This document shows positions 4,890-25,314 of a stretch of 64,000 nucleotides of DNA, in pieces. The stretch is from a virus. Taxonomy: Duplodnaviria > Caudoviricetes. Location: the IMG/VR virus record IMGVR_UViG_3300042397_003635. The stretch is one strand, 5' to 3'. The stretch's first letter is position 1. Each line of letters starts with the position of its first letter. Under the pieces are notes generated by a model, which saw only the letters and a list, made by a program, of their open reading frames with translations, had not been told where the DNA came from and did not search any database. Position numbers and translations under genes: made by a program.

Positions 4890-5963
4890 TCATAATAGGT
4901 GTGGTTTGGCTTCTGTTTGACCAGCATTAGTTATTTGTACCCATTTTGGATGGAAAGTTGCAAGTGATTCTGCACCGGCATAGGATAGAGCAGATTTTAC
5001 TCCATCAATTAGGCCTTCTACAATAAATTTAACTCCACCTTTAAATGGAACAATAGTTGATTCGCCTTCAACATTACGTTGAGCTTGACCGTGAACGGTT
5101 TTAGTTTCTAATGAGGCTGCTCCTCTATACCGCTTATACAAACCAGTTGACTTTTCAACAATTTGACCTGGACTTTCTGAAGTTCCAGCTAGGAGAGAGC
5201 CTAACATTACTGTACTTGCGCCTAGTGCTAGGGCTTTTGCAATATCTCCACTAGTTTTAATTCCGCCATCTGCCATTACTGGAGTTTTTGCAACTGCAAC
5301 AATATCATTAACACAGGTTACGTTTGGAATTCCAAATCCAGTTTTAATTCGCGTTGTGCAAAGGGATCCTCCACCAATTCCAACCCGTAAACCATCTGCT
5401 CCCCATGATTCTAAATCTTGAGCTGCTTCTGCAGTTGCAATATTTCCTGCAATAATATCAACATGTTCGGGTAAATTTTCTTTACACCATTCAATCATGG
5501 CTTTTACATTTTTGTGATGCCCGTGTGCAACATCAATTAAGAGGATATTTGCACCAGCTTCCACTAGTGCTTTAGCTCTATCCATATCGCTTGCCATTAC
5601 TCCGATTGCTGCCATAATTGGAACCTGTTTAATTTCAGCGTGCCAATCATCATACATAATTCCCCAATCTTCGTATGGTCCACCAAATCCATCACCATAA
5701 ATTTTATGACTTAGTAGTTTAACCTGTTTAGCCTGCTCTTCAATTGGCATAAATCTGTGAATACAGCCGACTCCTCCTAAAAGAAACATTCTAAATGCCA
5801 TTTCCAATTCGCACACAGTGTCCATTGGCGACGCAACTAGAGGTCGCATTAAACCATAGCGGCGACTTACTAGAGTTTGTAAGTTAATGTTTTGACGACT
5901 TGAAACCTCTGAATAACCAGGTACAAGTTGAATATCGTCATATGTAAGGGCAATATTATTCAT
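4890..5963 (-). CDS. guaB: IMP dehydrogenase / GMP reductase family, CBS-less
   Basis: LTYDDI, ASPMDTV, IDVAHGH, IIAGNIAT, RVGIGGGSLCTTR (catalytic Cys), MADGGI, YRGAAS; likely start MNNIAL; IMPDH vs GMPR not separable by eye. Confidence 0.88.
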   Translation of the reverse strand: MNNIALTYDDIQLVPGYSEVSSRQNINLQTLVSRRYGLMRPLVASPMDTVCELEMAFRMFLLGGVGCIHRFMPIEEQAKQVKLLSHKIYGDGFGGPYEDWGIMYDDWHAEIKQVPIMAAIGVMASDMDRAKALVEAGANILLIDVAHGHHKNVKAMIEWCKENLPEHVDIIAGNIATAEAAQDLESWGADGLRVGIGGGSLCTTRIKTGFGIPNVTCVNDIVAVAKTPVMADGGIKTSGDIAKALALGASTVMLGSLLAGTSESPGQIVEKSTGLYKRYRGAASLETKTVHGQAQRNVEGESTIVPFKGGVKFIVEGLIDGVKSALSYAGAESLATFHPKWVQITNAGQTEAKPHLL

Positions 5964-6693
5964 TATCTGTAAATTTAATAAAGGTGATTTCATTTGTTTT
6001 AGGATCCCAGTCAAATGTTACTGGTTTATTAACATATTCGTAATATTCATTCAAGATTGATGCATTAAACCAGTGAGTATGTCCATCAAACTTGTAACCA
6101 AATCCTCCATGGATATGACCACACACATGAATTTTAGGTTTACGTTCAGCTGAGTCTATATGATTTCTCAATAGAGGACACCCTAAATTTGGTTCATTAT
6201 ATGGAGGCCCACTCGTATCTAAATGACCTTGAGCTGGACCATGTGTAACCAAAATATCAGTATCTGCTGGAATTGCTGCCCATTTAGCAGCTAACTCTTC
6301 TCCTTGACGAGGAAGATTAAATGCCCAGTGATGGAATTCTGGTTGCCATGGACTTCCATAGATTTTTGCAGTGTTTACATTTGGATCATGTGGATCCGCA
6401 TCTCCAACAATAAGCCAATCGTCTTGCAAATAATCAATCCACTTATAAGAGCGAACAATCTCCATTGATTTTTCTGGAAAATCTTCAAACATTCTGTCAT
6501 GATTTCCTGCAATAAACACCTTATGGTCGTATTGGTCTAACCCATCAAACCATTTACAAAAGCTCACAATGTCAACTGGATTTCTTCCAGAGTTCATGAT
6601 ATCTCCTGCATGGATTAATAGATCTCCACCTGGTAAATCATAAGTTACCGCATTGTGCTTTGTGTGCGTGTCGCTAATTAGTGTAATTCTCAT
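5956..6693 (-). CDS. Calcineurin-like metallophosphoesterase
   Basis: SDTH, HAGD, AGNHD, THGP, GHIH motifs. Confidence 0.9.
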   Translation of the reverse strand: MRITLISDTHTKHNAVTYDLPGGDLLIHAGDIMNSGRNPVDIVSFCKWFDGLDQYDHKVFIAGNHDRMFEDFPEKSMEIVRSYKWIDYLQDDWLIVGDADPHDPNVNTAKIYGSPWQPEFHHWAFNLPRQGEELAAKWAAIPADTDILVTHGPAQGHLDTSGPPYNEPNLGCPLLRNHIDSAERKPKIHVCGHIHGGFGYKFDGHTHWFNASILNEYYEYVNKPVTFDWDPKTNEITFIKFTDNE

Positions 6694-11686: not shown

Positions 11687-11998
11687 CTAAAATTTTTCTG
11701 GCTTTTGCCAAGGTTTATTGTATTTTTCTTCCCAATATTTTCTATACTCTCGCACATTAATCATGTTAATTGTATATTGCCAATATTCAGTCTCATACCA
11801 AATAGTTACATGTAGCACTAAGCTAGATGGTGGAACATAATTCTCTTTAGCCCATTTGAATAACTGCTTAGTATTTCCCTTTTGTCTAATTTTTTTTGCA
11901 AACGTTGGAAAATCACAATCCCAAATAGTAGGATATGGGGTCAGTATACCTGAATACCCCAATCCCCTATATCCTATATTGTATGCTACTTGTTTCAT
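11687..11998 (-). CDS. Hypothetical protein
   Basis: Stop/start overlap with RNA ligase gene. Confidence 0.55.
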   Translation of the reverse strand: MKQVAYNIGYRGLGYSGILTPYPTIWDCDFPTFAKKIRQKGNTKQLFKWAKENYVPPSSLVLHVTIWYETEYWQYTINMINVREYRKYWEEKYNKPWQKPEKF

Positions 11999-13125
11999 TA
12001 GTGACTATCGCCAACTTCCCAATTTTCTGCATAGATTAAGTAATCTGGATTAATTACTTTTGCAACTTTGCTTCTATCTCCAGTATGGTGTTTTACAACA
12101 ACTCCTTCATGAGGTACTTTAGTTCCAAAGATAAAATTATCAAAGACATACATATCTTCAATTTCTTTATTCCAATCTCCTACATAAAGTACATCAACAT
12201 AAGGTAGGTCCATTTCAATTCCAACAAAATTAAAGGCCTCGTCAGTTGAACAGTATTTGCCATTGATTTCCAAGTCAAATCCTGCAAATTCAATTTCTTT
12301 TAGACCATAGTCATAATTCTTTTGAATACCTGCTCCATAGATTTCTCCATATAGAACAACGCCAATTCCAATACCATCTGGGAATCTTTCGGGATCCTTG
12401 ACAAACTTCCATAAAACCTGTTTAAGATTATACTTTGCCGCAATATCATACCAGACATTAGTGTCGTAGAAGCCCTGAGAGTCTGATCCTTTTTCTACAT
12501 TATGCGAACCTACTACGAATTCGTAATCGACCCACTTTGCACCAAAGAATTTCTTTACCTTATCGAATAGAGATAATTTGTTTTTCTTTACAATACCATA
12601 TCGAGCATTGGTTCCATGGATCTTACGAGTGATCTCAACCCAATCATCTTCAGTAAAAATTCCTGGTACATTCTTTGCATTTGGAAATTTGTAATAGATA
12701 TGGAAGTTTGGATTTTCTGAGTATCTGATCTTTTTACCAGAACTCAATTGAACTTGCTTAACCGGTGGTTCATATTTCCAAATATCCATTGCATACATCA
12801 TGTCCTTACCTTCATAGTAATTTTCCATGAATGGAACATGTTTAATTGGAATGATTAGACACTCTGAATATACTCCACGTAATTTTACAGTACGAACTCT
12901 ACCGCCTTTACGTAAATAATTTGTAACATTTAGGCTGTCAGACAACTCGACTGGAATTACTGCATCAGTTGTTGCAACTACTACAAGATCCCCATTCGAG
13001 TATTGTCCCTTTTGGATAATTGCTTGCCATCCACTGACTAATGCCAATTCAATAGCATCTGCTCCTGGAATAGGTACGATTTCACCAATACTTGCTACAA
13101 AGCAAACTGAATTATTATTTTCCAT
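11998..13125 (-). CDS. RNA ligase (Rnl2 / DRB0094-like family)
   Basis: N-terminal PIPGADAIELA..GWQ..KG domain; motif I KIHGTN; YGEIYG; PHEGVVV; AKVINPDY. Confidence 0.88.
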   Translation of the reverse strand: MENNNSVCFVASIGEIVPIPGADAIELALVSGWQAIIQKGQYSNGDLVVVATTDAVIPVELSDSLNVTNYLRKGGRVRTVKLRGVYSECLIIPIKHVPFMENYYEGKDMMYAMDIWKYEPPVKQVQLSSGKKIRYSENPNFHIYYKFPNAKNVPGIFTEDDWVEITRKIHGTNARYGIVKKNKLSLFDKVKKFFGAKWVDYEFVVGSHNVEKGSDSQGFYDTNVWYDIAAKYNLKQVLWKFVKDPERFPDGIGIGVVLYGEIYGAGIQKNYDYGLKEIEFAGFDLEINGKYCSTDEAFNFVGIEMDLPYVDVLYVGDWNKEIEDMYVFDNFIFGTKVPHEGVVVKHHTGDRSKVAKVINPDYLIYAENWEVGDSH

Positions 13126-18575: not shown

Positions 18576-18656
18576 ATTTAACTAAGTTATTATACTAAGT
18601 TTATTAACTGGGTTATCAGTCGAAGATAAATATTTATAGAAATAACTCAATTATTA

Positions 18657-19568
18657 ATGGGAAATCACATTAAAAATTTTAAAGGTTGGAAGAACGTTTC
18701 AGAAGCTGGTTCTTGGGGAGAGTGGATGCAATCATTAGTTACTGGCGTAGGAGCAGAGACTCCAGAATTAGGAGCAGATGCAAAGGCTGCATTAACCGGC
18801 GTAAAGACATTAGCTGGTACTGTTGTAGATAAAATTGCAGATACACTAGGAATAGAAACTGACAAAAAGGAAGAACCAAAATCTTCTAAAGCTTTTAAAT
18901 CAAATAGCGGAAAAATTCCAGAAGAACACATTGCCGCATTAGAAGCAGCCATGGATAGACATGGAATTACAAATGAATTTGCAAGAAAGGCTATTCTTGG
19001 AGTAGTATCAAAGGAATCTCCAGATCTAAGACCTGAAGTTGACTATAGTAAAACTTCCAACTCTAGAATTAGAGAAGTATTTGGATCAAGAGTTTCAGAA
19101 TTATCAGATTCTCAACTTGATGCATTAAAAGCTAATCCAACTAAGTTTTGGGATAGAGTATATGGACCAACCGATCCAACTGGAAGAGGCTCAAAATATG
19201 GGAATTCTGAACCGGGCGATGGCGAAAGATATAGGGGTCGCGGATTTAATGGAATTACATTTAAAAGTAATTATATCAATCTTCAAAAAGTATACAATGA
19301 AATTGGTAAACTCGAAACTAATGATACAATCGATATAGTTGATAATCCAGAACAGTTGGAAGATCCAGCGATTGCAGCAGAATTTGCAATTCTTTATTAT
19401 ATCGATAGTTTTAAACGAGCAAATAAAAACCTAAATAACTTTAGTGATTTAGAATCTGCCGTAACTGATTATGTTAGATCAACTGCGGGTTGGGGTTCAG
19501 ATATTACAAGCGGAGTTAAGGCTCAGGGTTTTGCTAGAGCTCTAGACTATGCACAATCATTAGCATAA
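18657..19568 (+). CDS. GH19-like muramidase with CTS-like N-terminus (candidate virion-associated PG hydrolase)
   Basis: MGNHIKNFKGWKNVSE; ILGVVSKES, GNSEPGDGERYRGRGFNGITFKSNY; GATAAATA at 18625-18632. Confidence 0.8.
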   Translation: MGNHIKNFKGWKNVSEAGSWGEWMQSLVTGVGAETPELGADAKAALTGVKTLAGTVVDKIADTLGIETDKKEEPKSSKAFKSNSGKIPEEHIAALEAAMDRHGITNEFARKAILGVVSKESPDLRPEVDYSKTSNSRIREVFGSRVSELSDSQLDALKANPTKFWDRVYGPTDPTGRGSKYGNSEPGDGERYRGRGFNGITFKSNYINLQKVYNEIGKLETNDTIDIVDNPEQLEDPAIAAEFAILYYIDSFKRANKNLNNFSDLESAVTDYVRSTAGWGSDITSGVKAQGFARALDYAQSLA

Positions 19569-19569
19569 T

Positions 19570-19746
19570 ATGAAGATTAGAGATATTAAACCCCAAGATA
19601 AAGATATGGTCGACGGAATAGTCGATATTATAAAACAAGTAAGGGACAAAGATAATCGAGAAGAGATTGCAACCAATATGGTTAAGCAATTAAAGCGAGA
19701 AAAGATTATCTTAAACTACGAAGACTTTTTAAAAGCCTGTAAATAA
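19570..19746 (+). CDS. Small hypothetical protein (58 aa)
   Basis: MKIRDIKPQDKDMVDGIVDII...KACK; directly follows the GH19 gene; below ORF-track cutoff. Confidence 0.55.
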   Translation: MKIRDIKPQDKDMVDGIVDIIKQVRDKDNREEIATNMVKQLKREKIILNYEDFLKACK

Positions 19747-19747
19747 C

Positions 19748-19777
19748 AAAAGCCTCATTAAGCGGCTTTTTCTTTTT
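19748..19777. terminator. Bidirectional intrinsic terminator
   Basis: AAAAGCC-N9-GGCTTTT between the convergent + gene and tRNA-fMet. Confidence 0.65.
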
Positions 19778-19852
<75 letters not shown>

Positions 19853-19894
19853 CTATAATATTTTCAAGATGTGATTGTTGGAAAGTAAAAAAGA

Positions 19895-20750
19895 AAAACG
19901 CTGAGATTATACGTTTTAACGTTAGATCTTTACATAGGATTATTGTTTCCCTACTTATCCAGAGACTTTTGATCTCTACTCTAACAGTGCCGGTTTTTTA
20001 GGTGTACCACTCCTTGAGCTGCGGGTTTGAACTACTCTCCTCATATTATATCTACCAGAACCTGCCGATCCCGTTAACCCTTGCGAGGCTATAGATTTTT
20101 CTGAGAACTCGTATTGGACTTGCGATCCTTTACGGCAACTGACAACCAGTTACTAGGTAGGCACCTTTCGTTCGCAGCTGACGAGCGCTTAAGCTTTGTT
20201 TTAAAATGGATTTTAGTTATTCACCAAAAGAACTTTTTATTTCCAAAGTTTATTGACTCTGTGGATTGTGAAAGTAGTGGCTCGTCACTAGGCCAGCCCC
20301 GATTTTGTCAGGGTCGATACTTAACTACTCTCTGAGATATCCCTACCTCAATTTTTCCGGATTCCTCTTAACTGCAGTCTTGGTAGACTGATGATAAGGT
20401 TAATAACAGCACCACCTGTACATCAACTTGTCTTTCGACTTTAAGGCTCCCATTAAATTGGAGTTCGCAATCATGGAGTCGGATGATTCCACTCCTTGCA
20501 AATATCCTACGAGTTAATCTTATTGAGGTTCCCCTCTCAACTAAACGACCCACATCGCCTAGTCAGCATTCCAGTTCTCCTACAGTGTTACCCTCAGATA
20601 CTTAGGACTTCTGATATCCCGCTTGCCTACTCGAGTTCCTTGCGAAACCGCAGAGCTGATAAGTCATATAGCTCCACTTTATACCTGTTTCCAGGTTTAT
20701 TTGACGATCATAGGCGACCGTTTTGCAACCTAGCAAGCTAGGCTACATAT
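19895..20750 (-). ncRNA. Giant structured ncRNA, GOLLD-like (~850 nt)
   Basis: No credible ORF; elevated GC; many minus-strand hairpins with GNRA loops (e.g. ACCTG-GAAA-CAGGT 20683-20696); four GAGUAG motifs; boxA-like leader; size and tRNA-adjacent phage context match GOLLD; family not confirmed by covariance model. Confidence 0.7.
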
Positions 20751-21038
20751 ATCAATAAGATTCAAAGAACTTGTTTGTGTTACTTATTTATTATACCTAC
20801 TTTATTTGATTTTGGTTTAAATAAGTAAAAAAAAATTAAGGGTTTGAAAAGAGATCCGAAAAAATTTTCGCTAAAAGAGTGTTAAATGTTGATAGGTGCC
20901 ATTTTTGAATTTCTTAAATCTTGAATTTTAAATTCAGAGTCCCTGTCTTAACATCAATTGGATTGCTAGAATAAGTATGTAAATGACGTGCAGTCATATG
21001 CTACCGATTCCTCTTCACTCTTTTCTCTCCCCTATATT

Positions 21039-21467
21039 TTAAATTTTGGTTTTTGCATTGTGAGCTTCTAGCTCCTCTTGCAACATCTCGATTTGAGACT
21101 CCAATTTTTCAATCAATTGATCTTTTTCAACGATTGAGATTTGTGAAGTGTACTTCACTGGAGAATCCATTCGATATGATTGGTGCATTCCTTCTTTGCA
21201 GTCTAAACCTTTCAATTTAGAAACCAAAGATTTTAGTTCAGCTAATCTAAAGATTTTATCATAAACCTTTGCATTAGCTTTGTGAATAGCTGTTTTTAAT
21301 GCAACTAATTCATCAACCGATGTCATTGCTTTTTCCAACGCTTCCTTTGCATCATAAGGACGTGTAGTTCCTTCTTGAATAGAGTTGTACGCTGAAACAT
21401 GCGAAATGTACTCATTAGTTTTTGAAACTAATTTGTTTTTCTGTTTAAGTGCTTTTGTGATATTCAT
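21039..21467 (-). CDS. DIP1984-like all-helical protein
   Basis: MNITKALKQKNKL...LKTAIHKAN...RLAELK...L...NAKT pattern. Confidence 0.6.
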   Translation of the reverse strand: MNITKALKQKNKLVSKTNEYISHVSAYNSIQEGTTRPYDAKEALEKAMTSVDELVALKTAIHKANAKVYDKIFRLAELKSLVSKLKGLDCKEGMHQSYRMDSPVKYTSQISIVEKDQLIEKLESQIEMLQEELEAHNAKTKI

Positions 21468-21522
21468 GTTTTATTGTATTACTTAGTTAATAATAGTTTT
21501 TAATATACCTAAAAAATTTTTG

Positions 21523-21594
21523 AGCGGATGGAGAGAATCGAACTCTCATCTCCAGTTTGGAAGACTGGAGTAATGGCCATTATACGACATCCGC
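21523..21594 (-). tRNA. trnG: tRNA-Gly(TCC)
   Basis: Loop CTTCCAA, U73. Confidence 0.95.
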
Positions 21595-21709
21595 AAATTG
21601 CTGTCTTTCCAAGCTGTCAACCAGTGCACGTTCCAAACCCTTGTTTGGATGACTGCTTCTATTACTAGAATGCTTTATTTGCAAGTCGTCGTTGTGTTGG
21701 ATTTCTGCG

Positions 21710-22074: not shown

Positions 22075-22260
22075 CAAATCTTGCATGCTCACCATGCTTG
22101 TGGATTTGATTGAACATAGTTTACTGTTCACCTGTTTTGAGTGCACCAAAGAGCAGGGTCCATCACATAATACCTTGGGTCATGTATACTTCATTGGGTA
22201 GCTACTCCCACGAAGCCAAGGTCTCTTTCAACGGTGCTAATCCGTCTTATGTAAGATTTG
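22075..22260 (-). ncRNA. Candidate structured RNA (~186 nt) between tRNA-Ala and tRNA-Glu
   Basis: Ends pair (CAAATCTT/AAGATTTG); internal ACCTTGG/CCAAGGT, TGGG-AGTAGCTA-CCCA, TGAACA/TGTTCA and GCATG/CATGC helices. Confidence 0.55.
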
Positions 22261-22765: not shown

Positions 22766-23437
22766 CTATTTTCTAGGCTTTTTAGAAATTACCTCATCGA
22801 TAATTCCATATGCCTTTGCTTCTTCAGCACTAAGCCAAAAGTCTCTAGTTGCATCTGCTTTAACTTGTTCTGGATCTTTATCACAATATCCACCAAGTAA
22901 AACAAATAGCTCGTCATTTACTTTTTGCCACTCTTTCCAATCAATTTCAGCATCTTGGATATTTCCACTGAAACCTCCTGAAGATTGATGCAACATTGTA
23001 GTTGAGTGTTTTAGTGAGCTCCGCTTTCCTTTTGTGCCAGCTCCTAACAACACTGATCCCATTGATGCAGCCATTCCAGTATTAACTGTTCTGATATCAC
23101 AGTTAATATAATCCATTACATCAACCATTGATAAGCCGCTCTTAACACTTCCACCTGGACTATCAATATGCATAGTAATATCTAATCCATCAACTGAATC
23201 CAAAAACATTAGCTGAGCTTGCACAATAGTCGACATATGATCGTTGACTGGACCTGCTACCCAAATTAGTCTTTCCATCATTAATCTGGAAAAAATATCC
23301 ATTTGAGTTGCACGTAATTCGCGCTCTTCTAAAATATAAGGAGTCATTGACGACTCAATCTGCTTTTGATGGTAGTGCATATTCAATGAAGAAATGCCAT
23401 GCTTACTCATCGCGTATTTTTCAAATTCGTTTCTCAT
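22766..23437 (-). CDS. clpP: ATP-dependent Clp protease proteolytic subunit
   Basis: DIFSRL..ERLIW, IDSPGGSV, AASMGS (Ser), TMLHQ (His), RDFWLSAEEAKAYGIID. Confidence 0.95.
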   Translation of the reverse strand: MRNEFEKYAMSKHGISSLNMHYHQKQIESSMTPYILEERELRATQMDIFSRLMMERLIWVAGPVNDHMSTIVQAQLMFLDSVDGLDITMHIDSPGGSVKSGLSMVDVMDYINCDIRTVNTGMAASMGSVLLGAGTKGKRSSLKHSTTMLHQSSGGFSGNIQDAEIDWKEWQKVNDELFVLLGGYCDKDPEQVKADATRDFWLSAEEAKAYGIIDEVISKKPRK

Positions 23438-24317: not shown

Positions 24318-24746
24318 TTAATCAACTTTTTTCCAATCTTTTTCTTCTCCTAATCTGATAGGAACAAAGAGGGCGAATCCATTATCATCTTCAAAATGAT
24401 TGCAGGTATCAATATAAGTGTTACCGAACTTATATCTCCAATATTCAAATTCCTGCTTCTCAGCATTCCATTTAGCTGTTGTGGCATTACGAGTGTCGCC
24501 AATATAAACTTGACCATGGATCAGGTCGAGTTTTGGAATCGCTCCTCTTTGTATAAGTTTTGGAACATAAAAGTTTTTATATTCTTCGGGCTCTGCTCTA
24601 GGAATAGTTGGAACTTCATGTGGCTCCTTAAATGGAGTAGTTTCAGTTTCCCAATATTCCCTAATACGCTTAGCCCTTTCTGCTCTTTCATGCTCAAGTT
24701 GCTTTTGTATCTTGAGTTTCATAAACTCTTTGTCTATATTTTCCAT
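24318..24746 (-). CDS. Hypothetical protein embedded in tRNA cluster
   Basis: 142-aa ORF with phage-like codon use. Confidence 0.7.
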   Translation of the reverse strand: MENIDKEFMKLKIQKQLEHERAERAKRIREYWETETTPFKEPHEVPTIPRAEPEEYKNFYVPKLIQRGAIPKLDLIHGQVYIGDTRNATTAKWNAEKQEFEYWRYKFGNTYIDTCNHFEDDNGFALFVPIRLGEEKDWKKVD

Positions 24747-25084: not shown

Positions 25085-25108
25085 TACTTTCCAACATGTC
25101 AAAGAACC
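25085..25108 (-). promoter_or_regulatory. boxA-like element at the head of the tRNA cluster
   Basis: GGTTCTTTGACATGTTGGAAAGTA, resembling rRNA-operon boxA (B. subtilis GTTCTTTGAAAA). Confidence 0.55.
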
Positions 25109-25120
25109 TATTCTATAAAA

Positions 25121-25150
25121 ATAAAAAACCCGAACTTTTTGGGTTCGGGC
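25121..25150 (-). terminator. Intrinsic (attenuator) terminator upstream of the tRNA cluster
   Basis: GCCCGAAC-CCAAAAA-GTTCGGGT-TTTTTAT. Confidence 0.85.
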
Positions 25151-25186
25151 TCAGTGTTTCTATAGCTACTAACTTTATAATACCTA

Positions 25187-25285
25187 TCAACTCCTGAACC
25201 CTGTTGCACGATCATTGCCTGTCCACTTCGCATACGCTACTTGGCTAAAGCAATTCTCGGTAATATGGTTCATTTGTGTTTGCAT
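25187..25285 (-). CDS. Leader peptide (32 aa) of a putative transcription attenuator
   Basis: MQTQMNHITENCFSQVAYAKWTGNDRATGFRS*; codons 29-31 (GGGTTCAGG) complement the 5' arm of the terminator (CCCGAACCC); TATAAATA 22 nt upstream. Confidence 0.75.
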   Translation of the reverse strand: MQTQMNHITENCFSQVAYAKWTGNDRATGFRS

Positions 25286-25306
25286 CACTTTTGTTATTTG
25301 TATAGT

Positions 25307-25314
25307 TATTTATA
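25307..25314 (-). promoter_or_regulatory. T4-late-like promoter TATAAATA driving the leader/tRNA unit
   Basis: Exact T4 gp55 late consensus; same (G/T)ATAAATA motif recurs upstream of about 10 genes in the window. Confidence 0.55.

Follow-up and report, generated by a model that had tools for sequence, protein, structure and literature searches.

We identified a complete GOLLD RNA gene in the window, the stretch of 64,000 nucleotides of phage DNA analyzed here. The gene runs on the minus strand from 19898 to ~20747 and, at ~825-850 nt, represents an ordinary full-length member of this known family. Its identity is supported by a covariance-model score together with covariation, and we consider it essentially settled. 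For the region as a whole, the explanation that we regard as very probable is that of a complete phage GOLLD gene that is led by a boxA motif, is accompanied by an initiator tRNA and, by likeness to the env-38 GOLLD, gives rise to an RNA cage. GOLLD is among the largest non-coding RNAs of bacteria and phages, and the family is said to go back to Weinberg et al. 2009. While the copy in the window adds little by itself, in this phage group a boxA almost always leads the GOLLD gene, and an initiator tRNA is often its partner. The features described below are collected in Table 1.

Table 1. Features of the GOLLD region and of the tRNA array in the window
Feature	Position	Strand	Basis or remark
Terminator-like hairpin, then U-rich run	19748..19770	-	fold -9.5 kcal/mol (weak)
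Initiator-type tRNA-Met (CAT), encoded CCA	19778..19852	-	ARAGORN and Rfam
Unstructured U-rich spacer, GOLLD to tRNA	19853..19897	-	fold 0 kcal/mol
GOLLD 3' domain	19898..20332	-	RF02032 match, covariation
Hairpins P21a (loop CGCAAG) and P21b (loop with GGCA core)	20056..20091	-	consensus fold
A/U-rich unpaired linker J13/15 in 3' domain	20181..20268	-	Rfam alignment, gaps, low conservation
GOLLD 5' domain (cap domain in env-38)	20333..20722	-	homology, covariation
Variable 5' hairpin (10 bp, tetraloop)	20724..20747	-	-13.3 kcal/mol, z = -4.1
Putative boxA, GTTCTTTGA	20762..20770	-	leader, ~40 nt before conserved GOLLD core
Second copy of the boxA-type motif	25099..25107	-	17 nt before first tRNA (Phe) of tRNA array; outside GOLLD

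Identity and extent of the GOLLD RNA

The first-pass annotation of this DNA, made from its letters alone, had read 19895-20750 as a GOLLD-like giant RNA, and a cmscan search against Rfam confirmed this reading. The region 19898-20332 (-) matches GOLLD (RF02032) with 242.6 bits (E = 1.1e-67), well above the gathering score of 150 bits, and the match extends over model positions 1-416 of 416 with every helix of the model intact. ROOL, HEARO and OLE, the other large RNAs considered, gave no Rfam match even at E <= 1 in a permissive scan of 19700-21520; besides GOLLD, that scan returned just the tRNA and one chance-level match to a snoRNA. The RF02032 model (416 positions) describes the 3' region only, equivalent to residues 421-833 of env-38 (Kretsch et al. 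2025, PMC12286853), and the remaining 400 nt on the 5' side therefore needed a separate test.

Several searches indicate that the 5' side belongs to the same RNA. By blastn, the region matched two huge uncultured phages in its 5' half only, and both phages carry the Rfam 3' domain directly downstream of the match. A pattern made from two invariant blocks of the 5' domain found 11 loci in IMG/VR, with the Rfam 3' domain adjoining in all 11. With a less strict pattern and an nhmmer filter applied after it, we recovered ~60 full-length matches from IMG/VR that comprise 57 distinct sequences, 58-68% identical to the window RNA except for three near-identical ones. Column conservation in the alignment of these 57 sequences rises at 20722. 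The conserved core thus spans 19898-20722 on the minus strand, or up to 20747 with the extra 5' hairpin, and the span first proposed agrees with these limits to within a few bases. The 5' hairpin itself is variable: relatives have a hairpin of another sequence or length at this place, or none, and it corresponds to 43% gap in the alignment.

Both domains show extensive covariation. The 5' domain has 111 consensus pairs with 97.2% of cells paired, 81 of them with compensatory changes (counted where the change is seen in at least two sequences), and the 3' domain has 82 consensus pairs with 96.3% of cells paired and 68 with compensatory changes. When the 3' partner was shifted by 1-2 columns as a control, the 5' domain fell to 36-40% of cells paired and 22-34 compensatory pairs; the consensus structure was derived from the same alignment on which it is scored, so that the figures are flattered, but the margin over the controls is large.

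The lack of a credible reading frame was also borne out. The largest ORFs within 19895-20750 encode 81 aa (+), 73 aa (+) and 61 aa (-), and no ORF longer than 81 aa is present between the plus-strand ORF that ends at 19568 and the minus-strand ORF that ends at 21039, while the window elsewhere consists of a dense minus-strand gene array. Although frames of 61-81 aa are present on both strands, the probability that the stretch hides a short protein-coding gene is next to nil: these frames are mechanical, with TTG or GTG as their starts, and the substitutions across the 57 relatives follow the pattern of paired RNA helices, unlike codons.

The motifs first noticed in the sequence were recovered as well. 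All four GAGUAG motifs are present (as GAGTAG, minus strand) at exactly the positions originally given, 19976, 20032, 20325 and 20627, that is, four copies in ~850 nt where the window-wide rate of 34 per 128,000 strand-positions predicts ~0.2. Hairpins with GNRA loops are likewise found in the consensus fold, with GAAA loops at ~20694 and ~20436 and GCAA loops at ~20643, ~20123 and ~20086. Folding of the GOLLD stretch as a single sequence gave z = -3.3.

It is highly improbable that the region is a decayed, non-functional remnant of GOLLD, or an element that acts at the level of DNA such as an origin or a packaging site. The RF02032 match covers the full model without the loss of a helix, and the RNA-library contigs from four studies described below cover the stretch. 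In addition, the relative G001 (an IMG/VR fragment of 114 kb, estimated to be 44% complete) has only 3 differences in the ~850 nt of GOLLD, while its flanks are more diverged.

A scan of genome contigs for this GOLLD subtype returned two metagenome-bin contigs only, and hence neither a host nor a prophage. These are L128 and L129, whose bins bear the labels Candidatus Saccharibacteria and Candidatus Woesearchaeota; both fit the 5'-domain pattern of the subtype and are probably phage contigs that were put in the wrong bins.

Comparison with solved GOLLD cages

The env-38 GOLLD was shown by cryo-EM to form a D7 14-mer cage (Kretsch et al. 2025, PMC12286853), and its structure is listed as PDB 9MEE (PMC12990946). 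The window RNA resembles env-38 in its full match to the 3'-domain model, in the type of its 5' domain and in its length (~825-850 nt vs 833 nt). Both RNAs have the GAAA hairpin, the P21a/P21b module with its GC kissing loop and the A/U-rich internal linker, and both are phage-borne and adjoin a tRNA-Met. The env-38 sequence printed for the construct (Kretsch 2025 supplement, PMC12286853) starts at the equivalent of ~20721, just past the 5' hairpin. Within the 5' domain, blocks common to the two RNAs were recognized by eye from PDF text with lost letters (816 of 833 nt counted); these are the opening helix with AAAUAAA-hairpin-GAUAAAGUG, followed by GAGUAGGCAAG, GAGGGUAAC, UUGAG-UUCGGAAG and the GGUGGUGC hairpin. 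An exact 28-nt probe from env-38 had no match in IMG/VR.

The P21a and P21b loops join the two half-cages of env-38, and a switch between the palindromes GC and CG in L21a is part of the evidence for the intermolecular bridge B8 (Kretsch 2025, PMC12286853). The core of the P21a loop is GC in the window and is GC or CG, both self-complementary, in 55 of the 57 relatives. Among the bridge contacts of env-38, L21a/L21b alone were mapped onto the window RNA. A GAAA hairpin that is kept across the subgroup also fits the description of L11a in env-38 (Kretsch 2025, PMC12286853).

The GOLLD of Streptococcus agalactiae (Sag), which forms a 12-mer, belongs to the same family and has the same conserved 3' domain as the window RNA, but at ~700 nt it is without the P9, P11a-c and P21b of the 14-mer env-38 (2026 review, PMC12990946). 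Because the window RNA has P21b and a P11a-type GAAA hairpin, both absent from the 12-mer, we expect that its cage is probably of the 14-mer type. The cage is known for env-38, whereas the case made here comes from sequence comparison, and the window RNA is 58-68% identical to the other members of its subgroup. The two RNAs also differ in that the tRNA-Met is downstream of the window GOLLD, while env-38 is described as downstream of its tRNA-Met, and in that the window RNA has the extra variable 5' hairpin and a linker that is ~27 nt longer. ROOL RNA is like GOLLD in its phage and tRNA context and in forming an RNA-only cage, but it is unrelated in sequence and fold and had no Rfam match here.

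The linker J13/15 faces the interior of the cage in env-38 (Kretsch 2025, PMC12286853). In the window its extra length is relative to most relatives, the Rfam alignment shows a 16-nt insertion here, and ARAGORN detected no tRNA inside it. The linker contains GUUCUUUUGG at 20223-20232 (-), one base longer than the boxA core, which may be due to chance; this sequence abuts extra linker sequence that is confined to close relatives of the window phage.

A boxA-type motif in the GOLLD leader

The sequence just 5' of the RNA had been described as boxA-like, a description that gained strength on comparison with related loci and with rRNA operons. The motif, which is part of GTTCTTTGAA at 20761-20770, fits the general boxA pattern, G-y-T-C-T-T-T-r-A. 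As a 9-mer, GTTCTTTGA has two minus-strand copies only in the window, each placed before a stable-RNA unit. When the upstream sequences of the 57 relatives were aligned on the start of the core, GTTCTTT(G/A)A was found in nearly all. Among 70 related loci with enough upstream sequence, 68 have the motif within 140 nt upstream on the GOLLD strand, at a median distance of 61 nt from the GOLLD core (range 16-109 nt). Across 696 kb of GOLLD loci, we counted 121 copies of the motif on the same strand vs 21 on the opposite strand. In many relatives a Bacteroidota-type -7 box (TAnnTTTG) comes first, then a small hairpin and then the motif. Such a hairpin is not found directly before the boxA at 20770 in the window.

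To place the motif in rRNA operons, metagenome contigs were scanned with an extended 17-mer, GTTCTTTGACATATTGG, of which the GOLLD copy in the window has the 9-nt core and the tRNA-array copy matches 15 of 17 positions. Among 122 metagenome occurrences of the 17-mer, 34 are located 33-227 nt before the start of 23S and 26 are located 22-108 nt before a tRNA. Of 20 unselected loci annotated with Rfam, 8 have it in the gap from the spacer tRNAs to 23S and 5 have it ahead of phage-like runs of tRNAs. A Bacteroidota probe site is present in 12 of the 15 loci that include 16S, and one locus carries Flavo-1 RNA. A search of 600 nt around the 17-mer detected no start of 16S in these metagenome loci, so that the copies seen in rRNA operons are those of the spacer and not of the leader. 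In the rrn operons of E. coli, the 16S-23S spacer is the classical place of the second boxA. We infer that the GOLLD leader contains a putative boxA of the rrn type, the type found in rRNA operons that are mostly from Bacteroidota.

The antitermination leader of the E. coli rrn operons is arranged as boxB-boxA-boxC and works with NusA/B/E/G, SuhB and S4. As in that leader, the boxA-type motif in the window heads a long, untranslated and highly folded RNA with a tRNA after it, and rRNA operons, mostly from Bacteroidota, have the same motif in their 16S-23S spacer. Unlike the rrn leader, the window has phage GOLLD as the cargo, and it has neither an adjacent boxB-like hairpin nor a recognizable host promoter. 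A literature search found no paper that links GOLLD to boxA or to antitermination, and a search with the motif string returned unrelated primer matches only.

Alternatively, GTTCTTTGA may not be a boxA bound by NusB/NusE but a promoter element, an RNase processing signal or a site for a phage protein that marks stable-RNA genes, although we think this unlikely. No promoter was found upstream of the motif in the window, and its position often just 22-32 nt before tRNA genes in metagenome contigs, like the 17 nt that separate it from tRNA-Phe in the window, would also suit a processing or promoter signal. However, the separate -7 box and small hairpin that precede it in many relatives place the motif inside the transcript, its location between spacer tRNAs and 23S in rRNA operons argues for boxA, and a cutting site with a fixed position would hardly fit a distance to the GOLLD core that ranges over 16-109 nt.

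An additional copy of boxA was seen in each of three GOLLD loci (L033 at ~773, L095 at ~1207 and L038 at ~2987), and each is followed within ~15 nt by GGGGATG(T/C)TTGGAAT(C/T)GA, which looks like the 5' end of tmRNA.

An initiator tRNA downstream of GOLLD

The presence of tRNA-fMet just 3' of the RNA, also proposed in the first-pass annotation, is upheld by the features of the tRNA. It has a CAT anticodon, is located 46 nt downstream of the GOLLD 3' end and shows the initiator features of a U1-U72 mismatch, a GGG/CCC anticodon stem and A11. The mismatch is U-U instead of the usual C-A, and near relatives keep a 1:72 mismatch with varied bases (C-A, C-U or U-U). All relatives have a T-run after the last GOLLD hairpin. 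At the equivalent of 19748-19770, beyond the tRNA, the relative G001 has a stronger stem that results from changes on both sides.

In 27 of 61 loci, a same-strand tRNA(CAT) is found no more than 500 nt from GOLLD. These proximal tRNAs (n = 28) are mostly of the initiator type, with the 1:72 mismatch in 23 and the GG/CC stem in 25, compared with 5 and 3, respectively, of the same-strand tRNA(CAT) genes that are more distant from GOLLD (n = 19). In many loci the GOLLD-proximal tRNA(CAT) is the sole tRNA present. This association, in 27 of 61 loci and often without another tRNA, is what suggests that GOLLD might act on translation initiation. Taken to its full extent, the proposal is that GOLLD and the phage initiator tRNA form one rRNA-style unit (boxA leader, giant RNA and tRNA-fMet) whose cage acts on translation initiation, and we hold it to be a doubtful one. 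If true, the GOLLD cage might, for example, hold or deliver the initiator tRNA or engage ribosomes in the infected cell. Ribosome pull-downs with GOLLD are cited in Kretsch et al. 2025 (PMC12286853).

The upstream leader and the tRNA array

A scan for sigma-70-type promoters and for terminators stayed at chance level. No Bacteroidota -7 box (TAnnTTTG) was seen by eye in the GOLLD leader, and a 15-mer that contains TATAAT at 20783-20797 is not repeated in the window. Further upstream, a small hairpin is present at ~20965-20985 (-), ~55 nt past the stop of the ORF at 21039-21467. Its stem is kept through wholly different sequences in the window and in the relatives L006, L011 and L013, and it could either terminate the upstream ORF or belong to the GOLLD leader.

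We also considered whether GOLLD is part of a long tRNA transcript that is gated by a leader-peptide attenuator (~25085-25314) and made under tRNA shortage or translation stress, a reading that we judge improbable. In its favor, all 24 tRNAs and GOLLD are on the minus strand, the stretch that separates the array from GOLLD yielded no convincing promoter or terminator, and an RNA-library contig from one relative reaches 20971, at least 200 nt beyond boxA on the upstream side. GOLLD, however, is 4.3 kb downstream of the attenuator, past three ORFs (24318-24746, 22766-23437 and 21039-21467), and has a boxA of its own, and the covarying hairpin at ~20965-20985 could end the upstream unit. Furthermore, GOLLD is not beside any tRNA array in most relatives; no tRNA is within reach in 13 of 61 loci, and many GOLLD loci have a single tRNA-Met.

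The site at the head of the array has a structure of its own. A strong hairpin followed by U7 is present within 25099-25165 (-) (-21.4 kcal/mol, z = -5.2), with boxA 14 nt later and then tRNA-Phe, and the order of GC hairpin, T-run, boxA and, ~25 nt on, tRNA is also seen in L140, L142, L150, L163, L183 and L185. Since there is no room for a promoter between this hairpin and boxA, the hairpin must be read through at least sometimes, and such read-through bears on the attenuator reading of that site.

Presence of the region in RNA libraries

The stretch is present in twenty public runs, six of which are metatranscriptomes from six studies. We placed contigs from four metatranscriptome studies on 18600-21600. 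X16 provided a single 815-nt contig that corresponds to 19901-20713 with 3 differences. X18 has contigs at 19980-20662 and 20633-20748, X17 at 19949-20402 and 20396-20775, and X15 at 19878-20202 and 20269-20543, in addition to a more divergent contig at 20621-20971. Together, the contigs of the four studies cover 19878-20775 at >=99% identity, and those that extend to 20775 (X17) and to 20971 (X15) span the boxA leader. These data are a hint that the GOLLD RNA is expressed; contigs from RNA libraries give neither the strand nor the true ends of a transcript, and carried-over DNA is possible. The flanking ORFs are left mostly uncovered and depth within X15 differs hundredfold; neither a lack of cover nor contig depth can rank expression.

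Two high-depth contigs of X15 jump within the 3' domain, one from 19916 to 19985 (68 nt) and the other from 19961 to 20261 (299 nt). Each skip was seen in one contig, with short sides of 26-28 nt, and we treated these as likely assembly joins between GOLLD variants.

A model for GOLLD production and function

Taken together with what is known of rRNA operons and of env-38, the region suggests the following model. GOLLD would be transcribed through a leader with a boxA of the rRNA-operon type, where host NusB/NusE antitermination, which has this role for rRNA, would keep Rho from terminating RNA polymerase along the long untranslated RNA. An rRNA-type boxA ahead of GOLLD could thereby explain how an untranslated RNA of 850 nt escapes Rho termination and reaches high levels. 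Transcription may then run on into the initiator tRNA 46 nt downstream, as their spacing suggests, and stop at the hairpin at ~19748-19770, and a cut by RNase P at the 5' end of the tRNA would free the 3' side of GOLLD. By likeness to env-38, the RNA would have its 5' part folded as a cap domain and its 3' part as a ring domain, and kissing loops and A-minor contacts would join copies of it into a hollow cage made of RNA only, probably a 14-mer.

Our best guess is that the GOLLD cage is a particle with a role related to translation, which infected cells would produce at high level together with the phage tRNAs. GOLLD turns up in lake metatranscriptomes and, together with the boxA and the initiator tRNA, this points future work toward translation and toward hosts of the Flavobacterium type.

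The phage and its genomic neighborhood

The window carries genes for topoisomerase II subunits, a prohead protease and an endolysin, which are phage genes, and its 24 tRNA genes are all on the minus strand. The nearest record compared, G001, has 38% of the window's words in common. By topoisomerase, the nearest phages in GenBank are two uncultured phages of ~640 kb with 55% amino-acid identity. The host of this large freshwater phage is probably a Bacteroidota bacterium.

Other features were noted near the tRNA genes. A match to freshwater-1 RNA (RF02979) is located at 22105-22167 (-), between tRNA-Ala and tRNA-Glu, with 72.4 bits at a cut-off of 72, and a match to this RNA is likewise found in the relatives L006, L011 and L013. 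An RNA ligase with a PHA02142 OB-fold domain is encoded at 11998-13125 (-), and a protein of the GMP-reductase/IMPDH fold at 4890-6014 (-).
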